Positions 2,666-10,092 of a DNA stretch of 10,154 bases are shown piece after piece (the stretch's first letter is position 1; every line of letters begins with the position of its first letter). The translations under genes were made by a program, and so were the position numbers. Below the pieces are notes generated by a model. That model ran no database searches. It was not told where the DNA came from and was given only the letters and a program-made list of their open reading frames with translations. The DNA is from a virus (taxonomy: Duplodnaviria; Heunggongvirae; Uroviricota; Caudoviricetes). Location: IMG/VR virus record IMGVR_UViG_2654587726_000009; one strand, given 5' to 3'.

Positions 2666-3871
2666 TTACGCCACTGCAATCTTCAGCAGTTTGATGGCCT
2701 GCGAATCGACCAGCATCCCGCCGGTGCGCTTGGTGGTATAAAAACCGACAAACGGTTTATTGGTGTACGGGTCACGCAGAATGCGGGGGCCGATACGGTC
2801 AACGATGGTGTAACCCCGTTTGAAGTTACCAAATGCAATGGCTTTCGCATCAGCGGCGATATCCGGCATCTGTTCGTTTTCAGCGATACCGTAACCCGCC
2901 AGAGAGGACGGCTGCCCCAGCTCCAGCCCCGGACGCCACAGATAGTTACCCTCGATGTCTTTAAGCAGACGGATGGCAAACAGGCTATTGTTGTTCATCA
3001 TGAACTTCGCGCCAGTGCGGTGTGCCTTACGCAGCGTGTAAATCAGTTTGATAATGGCGTCTGCGGTCACCGCAGTCGCGTCGCCGGATACAATATGCTG
3101 AAGTTTGCCGAACGCCCGGACCTTATCGGTTTCATCCGTGGATTCATACGCCAGGAACCCTTTCGGCTTCTTGGTACCATCGCCGGTGGTAAAGGCAATT
3201 TCTTCCTGTTCGGCAAATTCGGTTGCCAGCTCGCTGTTGATCCATGCTTCCACGTTGAAAAAGGCATCATCCAGCATTTTCTGGGTGGCCTGCGGGTTAC
3301 CGTAGATTTCCCCCATGAAAGGTTCAATCAGGCCCAGTTTTGAGGTGGCAGTCTGGGAGCGCGCGTCAGTCTCGCCAACCCATCCGGAAGCCGTGCCGCC
3401 CAGATTCACCAGTTTTTTGTAGTCGGAACCACCAACGGTGATCACCGTGGCTTCCTGGCGCATCACCACTTCATCTTTCAGCAGGGTGAGAATGTTGCGA
3501 TCCAGTGCTTCCGGCACGGCATAGCCGCCGTCTTCATCGGTGCCCACCTGCAATGCCTTGCGCTCCAGATCGCGCAGACCATCTTCACGGCCTTTACGCA
3601 GGAAGCCCACAAACGCTTCTTTATGCTCGGTGGCCAGTTTATTTTGCGCACCACCTGCCGGACGTTTCAGCTCAAGCAGCTCTTTTTCAAGATCGCTTTT
3701 GAGGTTTTCCAGCTCGCTGAGTTTCCCGTTCAGGGTTTCCACCTGCCCGGCAAGTTTGCCTTTTTCCTGCTCAATCGCATCCACGCGCTTGTCGTTCTTT
3801 GCTTTGAAGTCGTCAAACTTCTGCTGCAGCTCCTGCGCGACCTGTTCGACATCTTTAATATCAACCGCCAT
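2666..3871 (-). CDS. Major capsid protein, HK97 family, with N-terminal coiled-coil delta (scaffolding) domain
   Basis: 401-aa ORF with strong SD AGGAGA 7 nt upstream of ATG 3871. The first ~100 aa are coiled-coil-like (KLAGQVETLNGKLSELENLKSDLEKELLELKR), followed by a capsid-like body; it sits directly after the prohead protease as in HK97 gp4/gp5. Confidence 0.9.
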   Translation of the reverse strand: MAVDIKDVEQVAQELQQKFDDFKAKNDKRVDAIEQEKGKLAGQVETLNGKLSELENLKSDLEKELLELKRPAGGAQNKLATEHKEAFVGFLRKGREDGLRDLERKALQVGTDEDGGYAVPEALDRNILTLLKDEVVMRQEATVITVGGSDYKKLVNLGGTASGWVGETDARSQTATSKLGLIEPFMGEIYGNPQATQKMLDDAFFNVEAWINSELATEFAEQEEIAFTTGDGTKKPKGFLAYESTDETDKVRAFGKLQHIVSGDATAVTADAIIKLIYTLRKAHRTGAKFMMNNNSLFAIRLLKDIEGNYLWRPGLELGQPSSLAGYGIAENEQMPDIAADAKAIAFGNFKRGYTIVDRIGPRILRDPYTNKPFVGFYTTKRTGGMLVDSQAIKLLKIAVA

Positions 3872-3885
3872 CGTATTTCTCCTGA

Positions 3886-4536
3886 TTAGAAGTTCAGATT
3901 TTTCAGTGCATTCAGTGCAGAGCCCACATCCTCAGCGTCGCGCAGGGACAGTGCGCCATAGCCCCCGGCCATGAATGCTTTGGCCTGGGTACGGGAGAGT
4001 CCGACATCACGCAGGACTCTTTCGATTTTTTTCTGTTCGGGGATTTCCCCGCGGGCCAGTGCGTTCTTGACGTCGCTGATCCGCGCCTCGTCGTTAGACG
4101 GGAACGTCACCAGGCTGACTTCCCAGAGGTCGATTTCTTTCAGCAGAAAGGCTTCTTTGCTCCGGTCGTATTCCCAGTCTTTCAGGACGTACCCAATAGA
4201 AAGGCCGGTTAACGAACCGGCCTTCATGTGTGCATGTGCGCGTTTTGCGAGGGGATCATCATCAATAAGCAACCGTCCCCTGACGTAAAGCCCGACATCG
4301 TCTTCCTTCATTTCAGTGTAAACACCGATGGGTTCATCCATGCGGTGCTGCCAGAGCAGCGCAGGTAACGCTTTTCTGTCACTCCACGCCCGCAGGGAAG
4401 CAGCAAATGCCCCGGACATCACCACATCATCGTGGCTGTCCTTTACACCAAAGACGGAGCCATACCCTTCAAACTCACCGGAGTCACTGACAGATTTCAG
4501 ACTCAGCGGTACATCAAGACGTTGTTTCGTCTGCAT
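3886..4536 (-). CDS. Prohead maturation protease, HK97 family (S78 peptidase)
   Basis: The ORF is open from 4572 (228 aa), but the ATG at 4536..4534 is preceded by a good SD (AAGGA, 8-nt spacer), whereas ATG 4572 has none, so I call the 216-aa form. It contains a DSHDD segment and a GLSIGY segment consistent with the catalytic His and Ser of HK97-type proteases. The start lies inside the 3' end of the portal gene. Confidence 0.85.
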   Translation of the reverse strand: MQTKQRLDVPLSLKSVSDSGEFEGYGSVFGVKDSHDDVVMSGAFAASLRAWSDRKALPALLWQHRMDEPIGVYTEMKEDDVGLYVRGRLLIDDDPLAKRAHAHMKAGSLTGLSIGYVLKDWEYDRSKEAFLLKEIDLWEVSLVTFPSNDEARISDVKNALARGEIPEQKKIERVLRDVGLSRTQAKAFMAGGYGALSLRDAEDVGSALNALKNLNF

Positions 4537-5755
4537 TGGCGTTATCCTTCTGCTTACCGGCTTTACTGCCATCGGAGGGTTCCGTGGTCATGTTCATCGG
4601 TGTGAGATAGACATCACCACCGGGACGCGGATTCATATCTTCCAGGTCGCGGCAGTCATTGGGAGAGTAAATTCCCCAGTTAATCCCGGTGGCGTAGGCT
4701 TCAAAACGGGACTTCATATCCCCGCGCAGTAACGCCCCGGCGTTAAATTTGGCGTAATAAACGCCCTGCTTACTTTTTCGTACCAGTCCGGTGTTGATCC
4801 GCTGTTCGATGCGGGTCAGATACGGCACCAGTGAATAGTTGATAAATCCCAGCCCCAGCTCTTCGATATTGTTGAAGGTGGCGCGATCGGTGTTCTGCAC
4901 CATGTGCAACGGCACCCGGAACAGACGACAGATTTCTTCAAGCTGAAACTTGCGGGTTTCCAGGAACTGGCTGTCCTCGGCGTTCAGCGCCATCGACTTC
5001 CAGTCCAGCCCCATCTCAAGGATCATCGGGCGGTGAGCATTGCCAAGCCCGGTGTGACGCTCCTCAAAATCTTTCTTCAGGCGCTCATAAGCCTGATCCG
5101 ACAGCGTCTGCTCTGTACGCAACACACCCGACGTCACCGCACCATTGCTGAACAGTCTGGCCCCGTGCTCTTCGGTCGCTGCCGCCAGCGATATTGCCTC
5201 GCGGGCATAGGCGATGGGATTCAGCCCCACCAGACCGTCCAGCGTCAGCGTGCGCACATGCCAGATATCCTCCTGGCTCAGTACATCCGTGGAACCATCC
5301 GGGAATGTGACCTGATAGACCGGCTCCCAGCGACTGTTAAGCTTCGGTACCACACAGCCGGGATCGACGGGCAGCAGTTCAGCCACTTCGCCAAATGCTT
5401 TCACTTTGTAGGCGTAAAAGTTTCCCCGCAGGCACAGACAGGTGACCACCAGCTCCCAGAACTCCTGCGGCGTCATATAGCCATTGGGATGCGTGGAGAT
5501 CAGCTTATGCAGACGTTCGCCGGTGGCTCTCTGTTTCAGGCTGCCGTTCAGGTGATACAGATTGCAGGGCAACATCCCGACCGACTCTGCCAGCACTCTG
5601 ACGCAGGAAAAAACCGCCGTCAGTCGCATGGCCCGCTGACTGCTGATCTGCTTTCCGGTATAGGTGTCGTAAGACAACCCGATGGCATCCGCCAGCTCTG
5701 CTGGCGTGGTCACCGGCGCGTCACTTTTTCGTTGAAATAATCCCGAAAAGAACAC
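4514..5755 (-). CDS. Portal protein, HK97 family
   Basis: 413-aa ORF between terminase and protease. It starts at GTG 5755..5753 with a strong SD GGAGGT 5 nt upstream; the first in-frame ATG is 42 codons in and would truncate the protein. Stop is TGA 4516..4514. Confidence 0.9.
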   Translation of the reverse strand: MFFSGLFQRKSDAPVTTPAELADAIGLSYDTYTGKQISSQRAMRLTAVFSCVRVLAESVGMLPCNLYHLNGSLKQRATGERLHKLISTHPNGYMTPQEFWELVVTCLCLRGNFYAYKVKAFGEVAELLPVDPGCVVPKLNSRWEPVYQVTFPDGSTDVLSQEDIWHVRTLTLDGLVGLNPIAYAREAISLAAATEEHGARLFSNGAVTSGVLRTEQTLSDQAYERLKKDFEERHTGLGNAHRPMILEMGLDWKSMALNAEDSQFLETRKFQLEEICRLFRVPLHMVQNTDRATFNNIEELGLGFINYSLVPYLTRIEQRINTGLVRKSKQGVYYAKFNAGALLRGDMKSRFEAYATGINWGIYSPNDCRDLEDMNPRPGGDVYLTPMNMTTEPSDGSKAGKQKDNANADETTS

Positions 5756-5937
5756 TATTTACCTCCGCCGACAGACGGCTGTGTACGGTCGAGATATCGC
5801 GCCACCAGCCACGACCAGAACAGGCACAGCACCCCGGCAACAACAAAACCCGCCGGGGGATAAATCAGCCAGGCACCATACGCCAGCAAAAGCGCACCCA
5901 GCACGCCCACCAGTGGCGCGAGAATTATCAGAAACAT
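5755..5937 (-). CDS. Small predicted membrane protein, 60 aa, two hydrophobic helices
   Basis: [63 protein letters not shown]. It has its own SD (GAGGT, 5-nt spacer) 11 nt after the TerL stop, and its stop TAG shares a base with the portal GTG start. Its last codons (GGC GGA GGT AAA) encode the portal SD. No homology recognised. Confidence 0.45.
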
Positions 5938-5948
5938 AATGACCTCGG

Positions 5949-7706
5949 TTAAAGCGAACGGATGCCCACGCTGACCAGATGTTCAGACAGATCCAGCTCC
6001 GGTTCACCACCATTGACCAGCATCCGGCTCATTGCTGTAAACATCGCAACAGGGCCGTCGATTTTGGCTTCCAGCGTGGATTTATTCGGGAAGATATTGT
6101 CGTTTTTGTCCGGTTTTACCGTAACGTTAGACATCATCCAGTTCATGACCGGATGATTGCTGTGATGGAAACGCCCGGCATAGACCAGTGATTCCGTTTC
6201 CTTCATGGCCTCTGACAGATTACGAACCGTCTGCGGAACCTCCACCAGCGGTATCCCTTCTTCAGCCAGTGCCAGGCTGAACTGCATCGCGCTCCACGGG
6301 TCAAATCCCAGTTCCCTGAGGTTTTCACCACCAATCCATTCCAGTAAGTCACTTTTTATCTGAGCATGATCGATAACATCACCATCCGTCAGAATCAGCT
6401 TATCCATCTCCGCCCACTTCCGGTAAAGTTCTGCCTGCTGCCGCGAGCATCGTTCCAGCCGTCCTTCCGGAAGCCAGAATTTAAAATCGGCATGAACATG
6501 CCCGTTATCCGTTCGCCAGAGTTTTGCCGCCGCACAGATATCAATCTTATGAGCAAGGTCAACGCCGACCCACATGGGATACGTTTTCAGCTCATGTCGT
6601 GGGGCAATGTATTCGCACTTCTCCCACTTAATCATGTCCATCCAGGCAGACTCTGCTGTTACCCACACATTCATGTGTTTGGTAAAAAAATTCACCCGCG
6701 CAGAGACCTGTTCTTTCGCTTTTTTCGCCAGGCGACGCAGATCATCCCAGCGTTTACAGATGCCCAGGCCGGGATTCGCTTTCTGCCAGACCGTTTCATC
6801 AAACGGATCATCTCCCTCATCGAGGGTGTAAATAATCGCAAAGTAGGAGTCGTCTTTTACAGCGCCCTCCACATCGCTGTTATAGCCACGCAATACCTTG
6901 ATGGCGTAATCACGCTGCTCGTAACAAATCCCTTCCTTGTTAAACCCTGCCGTGGTGATACCAAATAACAGGGACTGCAGGCGAGCACCGGTTGCCGTTT
7001 CCAGAACGTCCCACACGTCGCGGGTTTTATGTGCATGCAGCTCATCAATAATGGCGCAGTGGATGTTCAGACCATCCAGGTTGTTTGCATCCGAAGAAAG
7101 CGGTTCAAATTTTGATGCGCTCTGCTCCTGGTAAATCGCCAGCTTGTTGAAATCAAACAACCGCCCGAGTGTCGACCGGGCTTTTCTGACCATATTTTTG
7201 GCGTCTTCAAACACAATTCTGGCCTGGTCACGCGTGGTGGCGGCTGAATACACCTCAGCACCGCCTTCACCATCTGCCCCCGTCATATACAGGCCGATAC
7301 CCGATGACAGAGTTGATTTTGCGTTTTTACGGGCGACTTCGTTGTACGCCGTCCGGAACCGGCGCACCATCACCGGACGTCCGCTGCCATCGCTGCGCAT
7401 GACAACTTCCCCGGTCTCTTCATTCACCAGCGGAATGACAAAACCAAAAATATTAATGAGGATAAATACATGCCAGTCCATCAGTTCAATGGGCTGGCCT
7501 GCCAGCGCCCCTTTTACATGAGGCACAAATTTGTAGAAATTCAGGATGTGCTGCGCACGGGGTTCACTGAAATAAATCCCCCGCTCTTCGCCGTACTTCA
7601 GATCATCAAGAAAACGCTGGCAGGCCAGGCGGACAAATTCGCCAGCAACAATTTCTCCTGCAACAACACGTTCGGCGTAGCGGATCCCGTCAGCCACTTT
7701 TGCCAT
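5949..7706 (-). CDS. Terminase large subunit (ATPase plus nuclease)
   Basis: 585-aa ORF immediately after the small terminase; the two genes share TGATG (stop/start overlap). Contains a P-loop-like segment ARKNAKSTL, a Walker B-like AIIDELH, and a C-terminal region with acidic residues ([10 protein letters not shown]) consistent with a terminase nuclease domain. Confidence 0.9.
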
Positions 7707-8188
7707 CAGTCTCTCGCTTTTAAAAGCTCCGCCAGCGGATCAACATCATCCGGTCCGGCGATATTTACTTTAGCCCGGCTTGCCGGTGACATACCAAACT
7801 CTGCAAGCATTGCCCGGATCCGCTTCCAGGCATCCGCTTTCATTGCCGCCGCGGGGTGCGCCTTAATCAGTACATCACCGCTCTGCGTTTCCGTGCGGTA
7901 GGTATACCCCTCAACATCGAGTGTTTCGCAGTGATGCCGATATTCGGTGTAGGCTTCCACCAGCAACTCGAGCGCACGCGCATCAAGCTGAGAAATGATC
8001 CCTTCCGCATTCAGCTCTTCCGCCATTCGCCTGAACCAGTACTTCCCCTGAGCCCCTAAATGCTGCGGAATTTTAGGAAGACCTTTTTCATCCTTTTTAG
8101 CGGTTTTTTTGTGGTCTTTAACGGGGCGCTTTGAGGGGTTGCCTCGAATCAAATGCAGGCGTGGCGGGGTTTTCGGAGGTCCTGACAT
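7706..8188 (-). CDS. Terminase small subunit, P27 family
   Basis: 160-aa basic ORF (MSGPPKTPPRLHLIRGNPSKRPVKDHKK...) directly upstream of and overlapping the large terminase, downstream of the HNH gene and the cos-like non-coding segment. Resembles P27/HK97 gp1-type small terminases as I recall them. Confidence 0.8.
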   Translation of the reverse strand: MSGPPKTPPRLHLIRGNPSKRPVKDHKKTAKKDEKGLPKIPQHLGAQGKYWFRRMAEELNAEGIISQLDARALELLVEAYTEYRHHCETLDVEGYTYRTETQSGDVLIKAHPAAAMKADAWKRIRAMLAEFGMSPASRAKVNIAGPDDVDPLAELLKARD

Positions 8189-8336: not shown

Positions 8337-8687
8337 TCAGTTGATGCGTTCGCGCGCAGTTTTTGCTTTATGGCAGGGCCAGCACAGACTCTGCAGGTTA
8401 CTGTCTGCATCCGTGCCACCATGAGCTTTCGGAATGATGTGGTCCACAGTTCTGGCTTCAACGGCTCTCCCATTGCGCAGGCAGTTCTGACACAGATGAT
8501 TATCACGCTTCAGTATGCGCGCACGTATGGCATCCCATTTCGAGCCATAGCCACGCTGGTGGCGACTCAGTCCGCGCTGATGCTGTACCCATCCTTCGCC
8601 ACGATGTTTATCGCAGTAACCAGAACTGTCTGTGGTTGTACCTGCGCATCCACGCTTACGGCAGGCTCGTGGGATTCGTGATGGCAT
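8337..8687 (-). CDS. HNH endonuclease (terminase-associated, HK97 gp74-like)
   Basis: 116-aa ORF with paired Cys motifs (CQNC ... CWPCH) and DHIIPKAHGGTDADSNLQSLCWPCH, a classic HNH/zinc-finger nuclease signature. SD GAGGT precedes ATG 8687..8685. Location just upstream of cos and TerS matches the HK97-type packaging arrangement. Confidence 0.85.
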   Translation of the reverse strand: MPSRIPRACRKRGCAGTTTDSSGYCDKHRGEGWVQHQRGLSRHQRGYGSKWDAIRARILKRDNHLCQNCLRNGRAVEARTVDHIIPKAHGGTDADSNLQSLCWPCHKAKTARERIN

Positions 8688-9154: not shown

Positions 9155-9619
9155 CTACTTAATGCACTGGGTGCGGATATATTCCTGTGCCCCTTCCAGT
9201 TGCTTCTGCATCGTCATCAACCGTTCTCTGAGGGTGAAATAATCCCGTTCAGCGGTGTCTGCCAGTCGGGGGGAGGCTGCATTATCCACGCCGGAGGCGG
9301 TGGTGGCTTCACGCACTGACTGACAGACTGCTTTGATGTGCAACCGACGACGACCAGCGGCAACATCATCACGCAGAACATCATTTTCAGCTTTCGCATC
9401 AGCTAACTCCTTCGTGTATTTTGCATCGAGCGCAGCAACATCACGCTGACGCATCTGCATGTCAGTAATGGTGGCGGTCGCCTTCTCCAGTTCACTGGCC
9501 TTGTTATCGCGCTGTTCTTTGTAGGCGATTGCATTATCACGGTAATGATTAACAGCCCATGACAGGCAGACGATGATGCAGATAACCAGAGCGGAGATAA
9601 TCGCGGTGACTCTGCTCAT
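9155..9619 (-). CDS. Rz: Rz inner-membrane spanin (i-spanin)
   Basis: 154-aa ORF starting [31 protein letters not shown]..., very close to lambda Rz as I recall it: N-terminal TM helix then a coiled-coil periplasmic domain. ATG overlaps the R stop (ATGA at 9616-9619). Confidence 0.9.
9217..9399 (-). CDS. Rz1: Rz1 outer-membrane lipoprotein spanin (o-spanin), nested within Rz in an alternate frame
   Basis: 60-aa [63 protein letters not shown] with lipobox LVVVGC and a proline-rich mature region, wholly embedded in Rz; nearly identical to lambda Rz1 as recalled. Confidence 0.85.
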
Positions 9620-10092
9620 ACCTCAATCTCTCTGACCGTTCCGCCAGCTTCTTTGAATTTTGCAATCAGGCTGTCAACCTTATGCTCGAACTGACCGTAA
9701 CCAGCCCCCGGCAGTGAAGCCCAGATATTGCTGCAACGGTCGATAGCCTGACGAATATCACCGCGATCAATCATCGGTAAAGCGCCACGCTCTTTAATCT
9801 GCTGTAGTGCAACAGCGTCCTGGCTTTTCGGAGAGAAGTCTTTCAGCCCAAGCTGCTTGCGGTAGGCATCCCACCAACGGGAAAGAAGCTGGTAGCGTCC
9901 GGCTGCTGTTGATTTGAGTTTTGGGTTTAGCGTGACAAGTTTGCGAGGATGATCGGAGTAATCAGTAAACAGTTCACCACCAACAATAACATCATAACCG
10001 TGGTTACGTGTCGGTTGTCGCCCGTTATCCGTTCCTTCTGACCAAGCCACCATATCAAGGAAAGCTTTACGCTGGGAATTTAGTACCTGCAT
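9616..10092 (-). CDS. R: Endolysin, lambda R-type lytic transglycosylase
   Basis: 158-aa ORF ...[80 protein letters not shown]..., near-identical to lambda R as I recall it, including the catalytic Glu in AWSEGTD. SD AAGGAG precedes the ATG. Confidence 0.92.

Follow-up and report, generated by a model that had tools for sequence, protein, structure and literature searches.

Results

A small gene lies between the large terminase and portal genes

The DNA analysed here, called the window below, is the whole 10,154-nucleotide stretch of the tailed-phage record IMGVR_UViG_2654587726_000009 (Caudoviricetes) in IMG/VR, and our subject is a short open reading frame (ORF) on its minus strand, located between the genes for the large terminase subunit (TerL) and the portal protein. 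By sequence comparison this ORF is ymfR, the gene for YmfR (b1150) of the Escherichia coli K-12 prophage e14, and the gene family is already catalogued, not new. The start codon ATG lies at 5937-5935, 11 nt past the TerL stop codon, and the stop codon TAG lies at 5757-5755. The original prediction, made from the letters of the window alone, described a 60-codon ORF with its own Shine-Dalgarno sequence and two hydrophobic segments, and this description is borne out by the sequence, by hydropathy at about the 99th percentile and by a helical hairpin in the AlphaFold2 model. The features of the locus, in window positions, are as follows.

5949-7706, minus strand: large terminase subunit TerL, 585 amino acids, C-terminus ...VGIRSL (PF03354 and PF20441)
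5943-5946, minus strand: Shine-Dalgarno sequence GAGG of ymfR, 5 nt before the ATG (from the sequence; kept in an alignment of seven diverged loci; predicted pairing with the anti-Shine-Dalgarno sequence -6.6 kcal/mol)
5755-5937, minus strand: ymfR ORF, 60 codons plus TAG, predicted small inner-membrane hairpin protein (YmfR / Sb3 / PHROG 502; ORF call, PHROG 502 match, RefSeq name and frame-specific coding signature)
5863-5934, minus strand: predicted transmembrane helix 1, residues 2-25, with the small residues G11, G14 and G21 (hydropathy, AlphaFold2 helix 2-25, invariant G11/G14/G21/W23)
5851-5862, minus strand: Y26-P-P-A29, predicted to form a tight turn on the periplasmic side and conserved more strongly than any other motif of the family (alignments and counts of basic residues)
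5794-5850, minus strand: predicted transmembrane helix 2, residues 30-48, with G30, A34/G35, C38 and S42 on one face (alignment, hydropathy, AlphaFold2)
5758-5793, minus strand: predicted cytoplasmic C-terminal tail, residues 49-60, variable except for the terminal GG (alignment, counts of basic residues after helix 2, AlphaFold2)
5762-5766, minus strand: Shine-Dalgarno sequence GGAGG of the portal gene, within ymfR codons 57-59 (GGC GGA GGT), 6 nt before the GTG (from the sequence; predicted pairing -10.8 kcal/mol)
5753-5757, minus strand: TAGTG, in which the ymfR stop codon overlaps the portal GTG (5755-5753) by one base (from the sequence; termination-reinitiation junction)
4514-5755, minus strand: portal protein, 413 amino acids, GTG start (PF04860, E 5e-108; 99% identical to the portals of ST64B and SfII)

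YmfR belongs to a widespread and already annotated family

YmfR matched phrog_502 ("membrane protein") over residues 1-55 of 60 with an E value of 1.6e-27. Sb3 of ST64B, SfII_03 and the "(putative integral) membrane protein" of SfI, phiP27 and 118970_sal3 belong to the same family as the YmfR of the window. A prophage of E. coli JP538 shows 100% identity to the window over the 701 nt that surround the ORF, and when this TerL-ymfR-portal segment was used as a query, at least part of it was matched in 1,947 of 5,426 complete E. coli genomes. RefSeq uses the name "ymfR: protein YmfR" where the copy is of the e14 type, and the records nearest to the window call the ORF a "hypothetical protein". 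We found 165 close homologues of YmfR. With E<=1e-3 as the cut-off, an exhaustive profile search brought the family to 406 clusters at 50% identity, almost all with lengths of 45-90 amino acids. The core motif of the family, G..G......YGAWL[IV]Y.PAG[FY]I..G, is present in the window protein, and named members come from Marinobacter and Neptuniibacter besides the Enterobacterales.

E. coli-type ymfR-portal sequences were also seen in two records labelled as Gram-positive, namely OR844959.1 ('Enterococcus phage Efm 3-10', 1764 bp), whose DNA is 95% identical to the window, and a 'Bacillota bacterium' metagenome-assembled genome (JAEWTL010000102.1, locus L086), whose YmfR is 92% identical. Both look like contamination or mis-binning, not true Gram-positive hosts.

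The YmfR peptide is under purifying selection

For the coding test, the window was compared over a 48-codon core with five diverged loci from Mangrovibacter, Scandinavium, Klebsiella and two Citrobacter genomes. In the ymfR frame, the proportion of synonymous differences (pS) was 0.49-0.66 and that of nonsynonymous differences (pN) was 0.15-0.18, with pN/pS of 0.23-0.36 (Fisher p 4.5e-4 to 2.4e-8 across the five comparisons). In this alignment, the two remaining frames had pN/pS ratios of 0.93-3.6. Pairwise dN/dS of the YmfR core was 0.1-0.3, with dS about 1, and the pN of the portal gene in the same genomes was 0.12; by these measures the transmembrane core is almost as constrained as the portal protein. 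For the original prediction, related phages with conserved nucleotides and no synonymous-site pattern would have spoken against the ORF; the pattern was found, and in the ymfR frame only. Taken together, these results indicate that ymfR is a genuine protein-coding gene and that the peptide itself is under purifying selection.

In Shigella flexneri SFBU0723 (CP182557.1, 3994-4216; locus L094), a second prophage copy within the genome carries a ymfR that is frameshifted after about residue 27 and adjoins an intact portal gene (98.8% identity), which looks like decay in a Shigella prophage.

YmfR is a predicted helical hairpin in the inner membrane

The best 19-residue Kyte-Doolittle score of YmfR was 2.72, helix 2 reached about 1.9, and the percentile given above was taken against all open frames of at least 40 amino acids in the window. 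The AlphaFold2 model is a helical hairpin (helices at residues 2-25 and 27-52) followed by a disordered tail, with a mean predicted local distance difference test (pLDDT) score of 74 and values below 50 at residues 57-60. In the alignment, P8, G11, G14, G21, W23, Y26, G30, G35, C38, W41 and S42 are invariant. The stretch 49-57 shows no such constraint, and invariance returns at the terminal GG. Among 264 family members, lysine or arginine was found within the turn in only 6% and after helix 2 in 97%, and by the positive-inside rule the latter places the C-terminus in the cytoplasm. From hydropathy and the same rule, we infer a hairpin with both termini in the cytoplasm (N-in/C-in) in the inner membrane, with the four-residue YPPA turn as its sole periplasmic part. 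Distant family members carry basic N-terminal extensions. The conserved information of YmfR thus appears to lie entirely within the membrane, with the tail free to vary.

Five family representatives (P0157, P0178, P0188, P0216 and P0265) are tandem-duplicated, four-helix forms. P0178 consists of two PHROG 502 units and its gene overlaps a PF04860 portal gene by 1 nt, so that by sequence it is a fused dimer in the orthologous slot. Since such four-helix versions fill the same slot, the single YmfR hairpin probably works as a dimer or higher oligomer in the membrane. In scans of IMG/VR and metagenomes for the context of the tandem forms, all relatives returned were single hairpins, and these too lay between TerL and portal.

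One tandem four-helix member, P0188, was seen in a different context, at 1500-1808 of the JGI contig 3300036819 (locus L196). It is preceded by a 320-amino-acid protein without a Pfam or PHROG match and followed by a 100-amino-acid ORF and an S78 protease, and no recognisable portal gene adjoins it on this contig. This locus may be a reduced or satellite-like capsid module.

Searches of Pfam, NCBIfam, PADLOC and PDB sequences with YmfR gave no significant match, and the only hits were weak, generic transmembrane-hairpin matches (DUF1206 and DUF2244, E>=0.002). When the AlphaFold2 model was compared with viral structures by Foldseek, only uncharacterised small proteins were returned, none at E<=0.001, a helical hairpin being too simple for fold matching.

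Translation of ymfR is probably coupled to the portal gene

The 3' end of ymfR carries the translation-initiation signals of the portal gene. The portal Shine-Dalgarno sequence had been placed in the last codons of the ORF by the original prediction, and it is indeed found there, as GGAGG at 5766-5762 in codons 57-59; the codons of the terminal GG, the conserved part of the otherwise variable tail, form this signal. Across the family, the median predicted anti-Shine-Dalgarno pairing is -5.9 kcal/mol within the last codons and -2.4 kcal/mol at control positions (p 9e-18). The portal start overlapped the end of the small ORF in 56 of 60 unique IMG/VR junctions, with a 1-nt overlap (TGATG, TAATG or TAGTG) in 51 and ATGA in 5, and the remaining four junctions had gaps of 2-15 nt. 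In many relatives, the small ORF also overlaps the TerL stop codon.

Most relatives start the portal gene with an ordinary ATG. Because this ATG sits at the same overlapping position in the homologues (TAATG or TGATG), the GTG portal start of the window, as originally proposed, is supported. RNA structure at the ymfR-portal junction was at background (fold z -0.07). Taken together, these results suggest that the translation of ymfR is very probably coupled to that of the portal gene.

ymfR holds its slot and stays with the portal gene

In all 15 of the reference-genome loci compared, the ORF was found between TerL and portal, and these include an Alcaligenaceae contig in which TerL is 30% and portal 34% identical to the window and the ORF is still in the slot. 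The same order, TerL, small ORF, portal and S78 protease, was found in 80 diverse IMG/VR contigs that had been fetched by the core motif alone. This comparison of TerL-portal junctions had been proposed as a check by the original prediction, in which a membrane-protein gene in the gap was regarded as unexpected. That view does not hold: ymfR is a conserved and long-annotated resident of the slot in a large proteobacterial HK97-type clade.

The window and its closest named relatives differ in their terminases. TerL of the window is 36% identical to that of ST64B/e14, while relative to ST64B the portal is 99% and YmfR 90% identical. A Klebsiella michiganensis prophage combines the TerL lineage of the window (91%) with a portal of 82% and a YmfR of 63% identity. 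In 16 IMG/VR locus pairs with portal identity of at least 80% and TerL identity of at most 70%, the median YmfR identity was 83%, compared to 84% when both neighbours were similar. Where extra DNA lies between TerL and portal, at least eight loci have the small ORF next to portal, and a single locus (L104) has it next to TerL. Taken together, these results indicate that ymfR stays with the portal gene when TerL lineages are swapped.

The mosaic joint itself can be located by comparing the 3' end of TerL (5949-6200) with 4514-5967: from about 18 nt ahead of the TerL stop codon, and on through ymfR and portal, the window is 94-99% identical to ST64B/e14. Both TerL lineages end in ...GIRSL, a tail that may dock to the portal or mark a site of recombination common to both. 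Phages with the TerL lineage of the window usually have another portal (29% identical) and their own distant hairpin ORF. One such ORF, VKQLITDMTGLIGFGLLTAGVYLYAGLPASLMLSGCLLLLYALVVSMRRKHAS, lies at 1371-1511 of locus L190 (E. coli vB_EcoS-733R4) and matches the family with an E value of 7e-7; the slot is therefore filled in both parental lineages of the mosaic.

Distribution among HK97-type phages

Twelve isolates were sampled through portal homology, and a hairpin ORF was found in the slot in 6 of the 12. These are Yersinia PY54 (E 1.6e-19; unannotated, locus L184, 2283-2492), Burkholderia vB_RY5 (E 6e-6; unannotated, locus L180, gap 1518-1705), Ralstonia YO138_1 (E 1e-6), Klebsiella Kp4875-4 (E 6e-5), E. 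coli vB_EcoS-733R4 with the E value given above, and Vibrio K265, in which the family match is weak (E 0.005). No such ORF was found in the slot in Providencia PSTRCR_117lys and Aeromonas AsXd-1 (both Hendrixvirinae), Moraxella Mcat21, Burkholderia vB_PR5, Pseudomonas CF127a and Streptococcus Javan639. The position is kept at portal identities down to about 29-34%, and ymfR appears to be ancient in proteobacterial HK97-type modules.

The comparison also exposed errors in annotation. YmfR homologues bear the label "head-tail joining protein W" in ON470580.1 (locus L185, 6764-6946), ON470584, ON470603 and PQ793804, and the portal coding sequence of ON470580.1 begins 180 nt downstream of the overlapping GTG and is probably truncated. 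In SfIV, the tblastn match to YmfR falls on no annotated feature. The errors thus comprise the gpW label, the absence of ymfR from the annotations of PY54, SfIV and vB_RY5, and truncated portal starts in some records.

ymfR has no transcription signals of its own

Promoter-like sites numbered 2 compared to 2.5 expected, terminator-like sites numbered 5 compared to 4.5 expected, and none of them brackets ymfR. Two candidate signals were rejected: an upstream promoter with a 9/12 match at 5952-5924 would fire inside the ORF, and the count of such sites is at chance level; and a terminator that is annotated inside the SfII gene had a fold z of -0.15 in the window copy. GC content and GC content at third codon positions (GC3) were 0.59 and 0.64 for ymfR, 0.56 and 0.68 for portal, and 0.54 and 0.63 for capsid. 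The nearest sequenced phage has one lambdoid late unit with Q, tRNAs, holin S, lysozyme, Rz, HNH, TerS, TerL, ymfR and portal. Without such signals, ymfR is presumably transcribed as part of the long late mRNA.

All genes of the window are on the minus strand, in the order lysozyme, Rz, HNH, TerS, TerL, ymfR, portal, protease and capsid. Those not listed above are as follows.

9616-10092, minus strand: lysozyme
9155-9619, minus strand: Rz-like spanin
8337-8687, minus strand: HNH endonuclease, directly upstream of TerS (PF01844, E 2e-16)
7706-8188, minus strand: TerS
3886-4572, minus strand: S78 prohead protease
2666-3871, minus strand: HK97-type major capsid protein

An HNH gene directly upstream of TerS is an ordinary arrangement, known for HK97-type cos packaging. 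A 66-amino-acid ORF at 2416-2616 lies just downstream of the major capsid gene, and ON470580 lists the corresponding ORF as a hypothetical protein.

Discussion

On balance, the explanation that best fits the whole of these results is that ymfR is a late gene for a membrane hairpin, that it is coupled to the portal gene and that its role may be accessory, and we regard this explanation as fairly probable. The gene is common in E. coli genomes and present in E. coli K-12, and it sits in the most stereotyped part of tailed-phage genomes, where it belongs to the head module and not to the cargo and is coupled to the portal gene almost everywhere. The question is thereby sharpened to whether a membrane hairpin aids portal and prohead assembly, or lysis timing, in HK97-type phages.

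For its function, we tentatively favour a role of YmfR as a membrane-embedded late accessory of portal or prohead assembly that is helpful and not essential, a reading which is possible but falls short of probable. In T4, the portal is initiated on the inner membrane by the membrane-bound initiator gp20, and this step needs the viral factor gp40 (PMC9958956). An assembly role is favoured because the linkage of ymfR to portal is strict and ancient, and because gp40 and gp20 provide a precedent. In the proposed sequence of events, ymfR would be translated from the late transcript into the 60-amino-acid hairpin, which would insert into the inner membrane with both ends inside and the YPPA turn at the periplasmic face and would act within the membrane as a dimer or higher oligomer. 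Ribosomes that end translation of YmfR would start again at the portal gene, so that the synthesis of portal would be tied to that of YmfR, and YmfR would place the synthesis or nucleation of portal at the inner membrane, in a manner reminiscent of T4 gp40. In its broadest form, YmfR hairpins would be a widespread and unrecognised head-assembly factor, inserted co-translationally, coupled in translation to portal and tethering portal synthesis, and with it prohead nucleation, to the membrane in a large clade of HK97-type phages. We consider this form doubtful; if true, assembly that starts at the membrane, known from T4 (gp40/gp20), would be extended to another group of phages that is far larger.

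Several points weigh against an assembly role. Six of the twelve sampled isolates are without the hairpin ORF in the slot, so HK97-type assembly can manage without YmfR. The variable cytoplasmic tail is the only part of YmfR able to reach the soluble portal protein, which argues against a specific contact between the two proteins, and the close linkage to portal could stem from the start/stop overlap alone, without any shared function. Family-wide, the identity of YmfR is only weakly correlated with that of portal (Spearman 0.15) and of TerL (0.23); these correlations are weak since identity between short hydrophobic sequences levels off at about 50%, and only the subset of loci with a recent TerL swap is informative for linkage. 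In the searchable literature ymfR appears only as an entry in gene lists, with nothing on its function, and there is likewise nothing on the function of b1150, sb3 or phrog_502 or of any membrane protein encoded between terminase and portal. Finally, both the translation of ymfR and its coupling to portal were deduced from sequence.

A first alternative is that YmfR is a lysis clock or holin-like modulator, in which an oligomeric hairpin would alter membrane permeability or holin triggering and thereby co-ordinate the timing of lysis with head assembly. Class II holins and pinholins, such as S21 of phage 21, have two transmembrane helices in an N-in/C-in arrangement, and YmfR is predicted to have the same; in addition, both of its helices bear faces rich in Gly, Ala and Ser, and the tandem-duplicated forms imply self-association. 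The gene is, however, outside the lysis cassette: lysozyme and Rz lie 3 kb upstream in the window, and in the nearest phage a separate holin S precedes TerS together with lysozyme and Rz. Typical holin tails also differ from the C-terminal tail of YmfR, which is short, carries little charge and varies in sequence, and no holin profile was matched significantly (the best was Phage_holin_3_6, E 0.09, in 2 of 29 members). An ASKA clone of ymfR released D-alanine in the first round of a screen for leak or export, which is weak evidence, but the clone failed the second round (PMC10299036), and the authors of that screen point out that first-round hits may reflect damage from the overexpression of membrane proteins (PMC10299036). 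We consider a lysis role unlikely.

A second alternative is a moron-type gene for interaction with the host (superinfection exclusion, defence or anti-defence) that is unrelated to head assembly; a moron, for instance for superinfection exclusion, had been put forward in the original prediction. In PHROG, the family is placed in the category 'moron, auxiliary metabolic gene and host takeover', the occurrence of ymfR among HK97-type modules is patchy, and the conserved part is intramembrane, as expected if a component of the host membrane were the target. Moreover, the decayed prophage e14 has an intact ymfR next to pseudogenes of TerL and portal. Against this, promoter and terminator signals do not exceed chance, and the base composition (GC and GC3) fits that of the portal gene. 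In most relatives the ORF overlaps TerL upstream and portal downstream, and it could therefore hardly be expressed from a repressed prophage. The slot is also constant across portals as divergent as about 30% identity, and no PADLOC defence model was matched (best E 0.03). Superinfection exclusion proteins such as HK97 gp15 and P22 SieA are expressed in the lysogen and block incoming phage DNA; for ymfR no promoter is evident, and the gene is embedded in the late operon. A moron-type role is not supported by these comparisons, and we likewise rate it as unlikely.

A third alternative, also raised at the outset, is that ymfR is a purely cis-acting translated leader, in which only the act of translation matters, by supplying ribosomes to the portal gene with its weak GTG start. 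The most universal features of the locus are indeed the overlap of stop and start codons and the Shine-Dalgarno sequence within the ORF, and the only conserved residues of the tail, GG, are explained by the nucleotides of that signal. The part of this proposal that concerns delivery of ribosomes to portal is very probably correct. As the sole role of the gene it is largely refuted, because purifying selection acts on the amino acids of the core with nearly the strength seen for portal; in addition, a specific turn and core motif is kept across the 406 clusters, the portal start is a plain ATG in most relatives, and HK97-type phages without the ORF express portal directly after TerL. A leader that acts only in cis is accordingly very unlikely. 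The label of a lambda gpW-like head-tail joining protein, given in some GenBank records, follows from position only (lambda gene W sits between A, the TerL gene, and B, the portal gene) and is almost certainly wrong, since gpW is a soluble head-completion protein while YmfR is predicted to be a hydrophobic two-helix membrane hairpin, PHROG 502 is annotated as 'membrane protein' and not as a connector protein, and the family profile matched none of the PDB sequences, which include gpW, at E<=1, so that homology is refuted.

Compared to known systems, the YmfR of the window is closest to the e14/ST64B type, with the same length, two-helix hairpin and TerL-portal slot and 90-100% identity; it differs from these copies only in the attached TerL lineage, and in the protein itself nothing material differs. 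Lambda gpW is of similar size and holds the same TerL-portal position, which is the source of the misannotation. With pinholins of the S21 type, YmfR shares a small size, helix faces of small residues and a likely oligomerisation, but unlike class II holins it is without a strongly charged C-terminal domain, and the canonical holin is encoded elsewhere. With T4 gp40 the analogy is functional only: both would be phage-encoded, membrane-associated, non-structural late factors tied to the portal. The portal role of YmfR is deduced from linkage, and HK97-type phages that lack YmfR exist. T4 gene 40 is not adjacent to gene 20.

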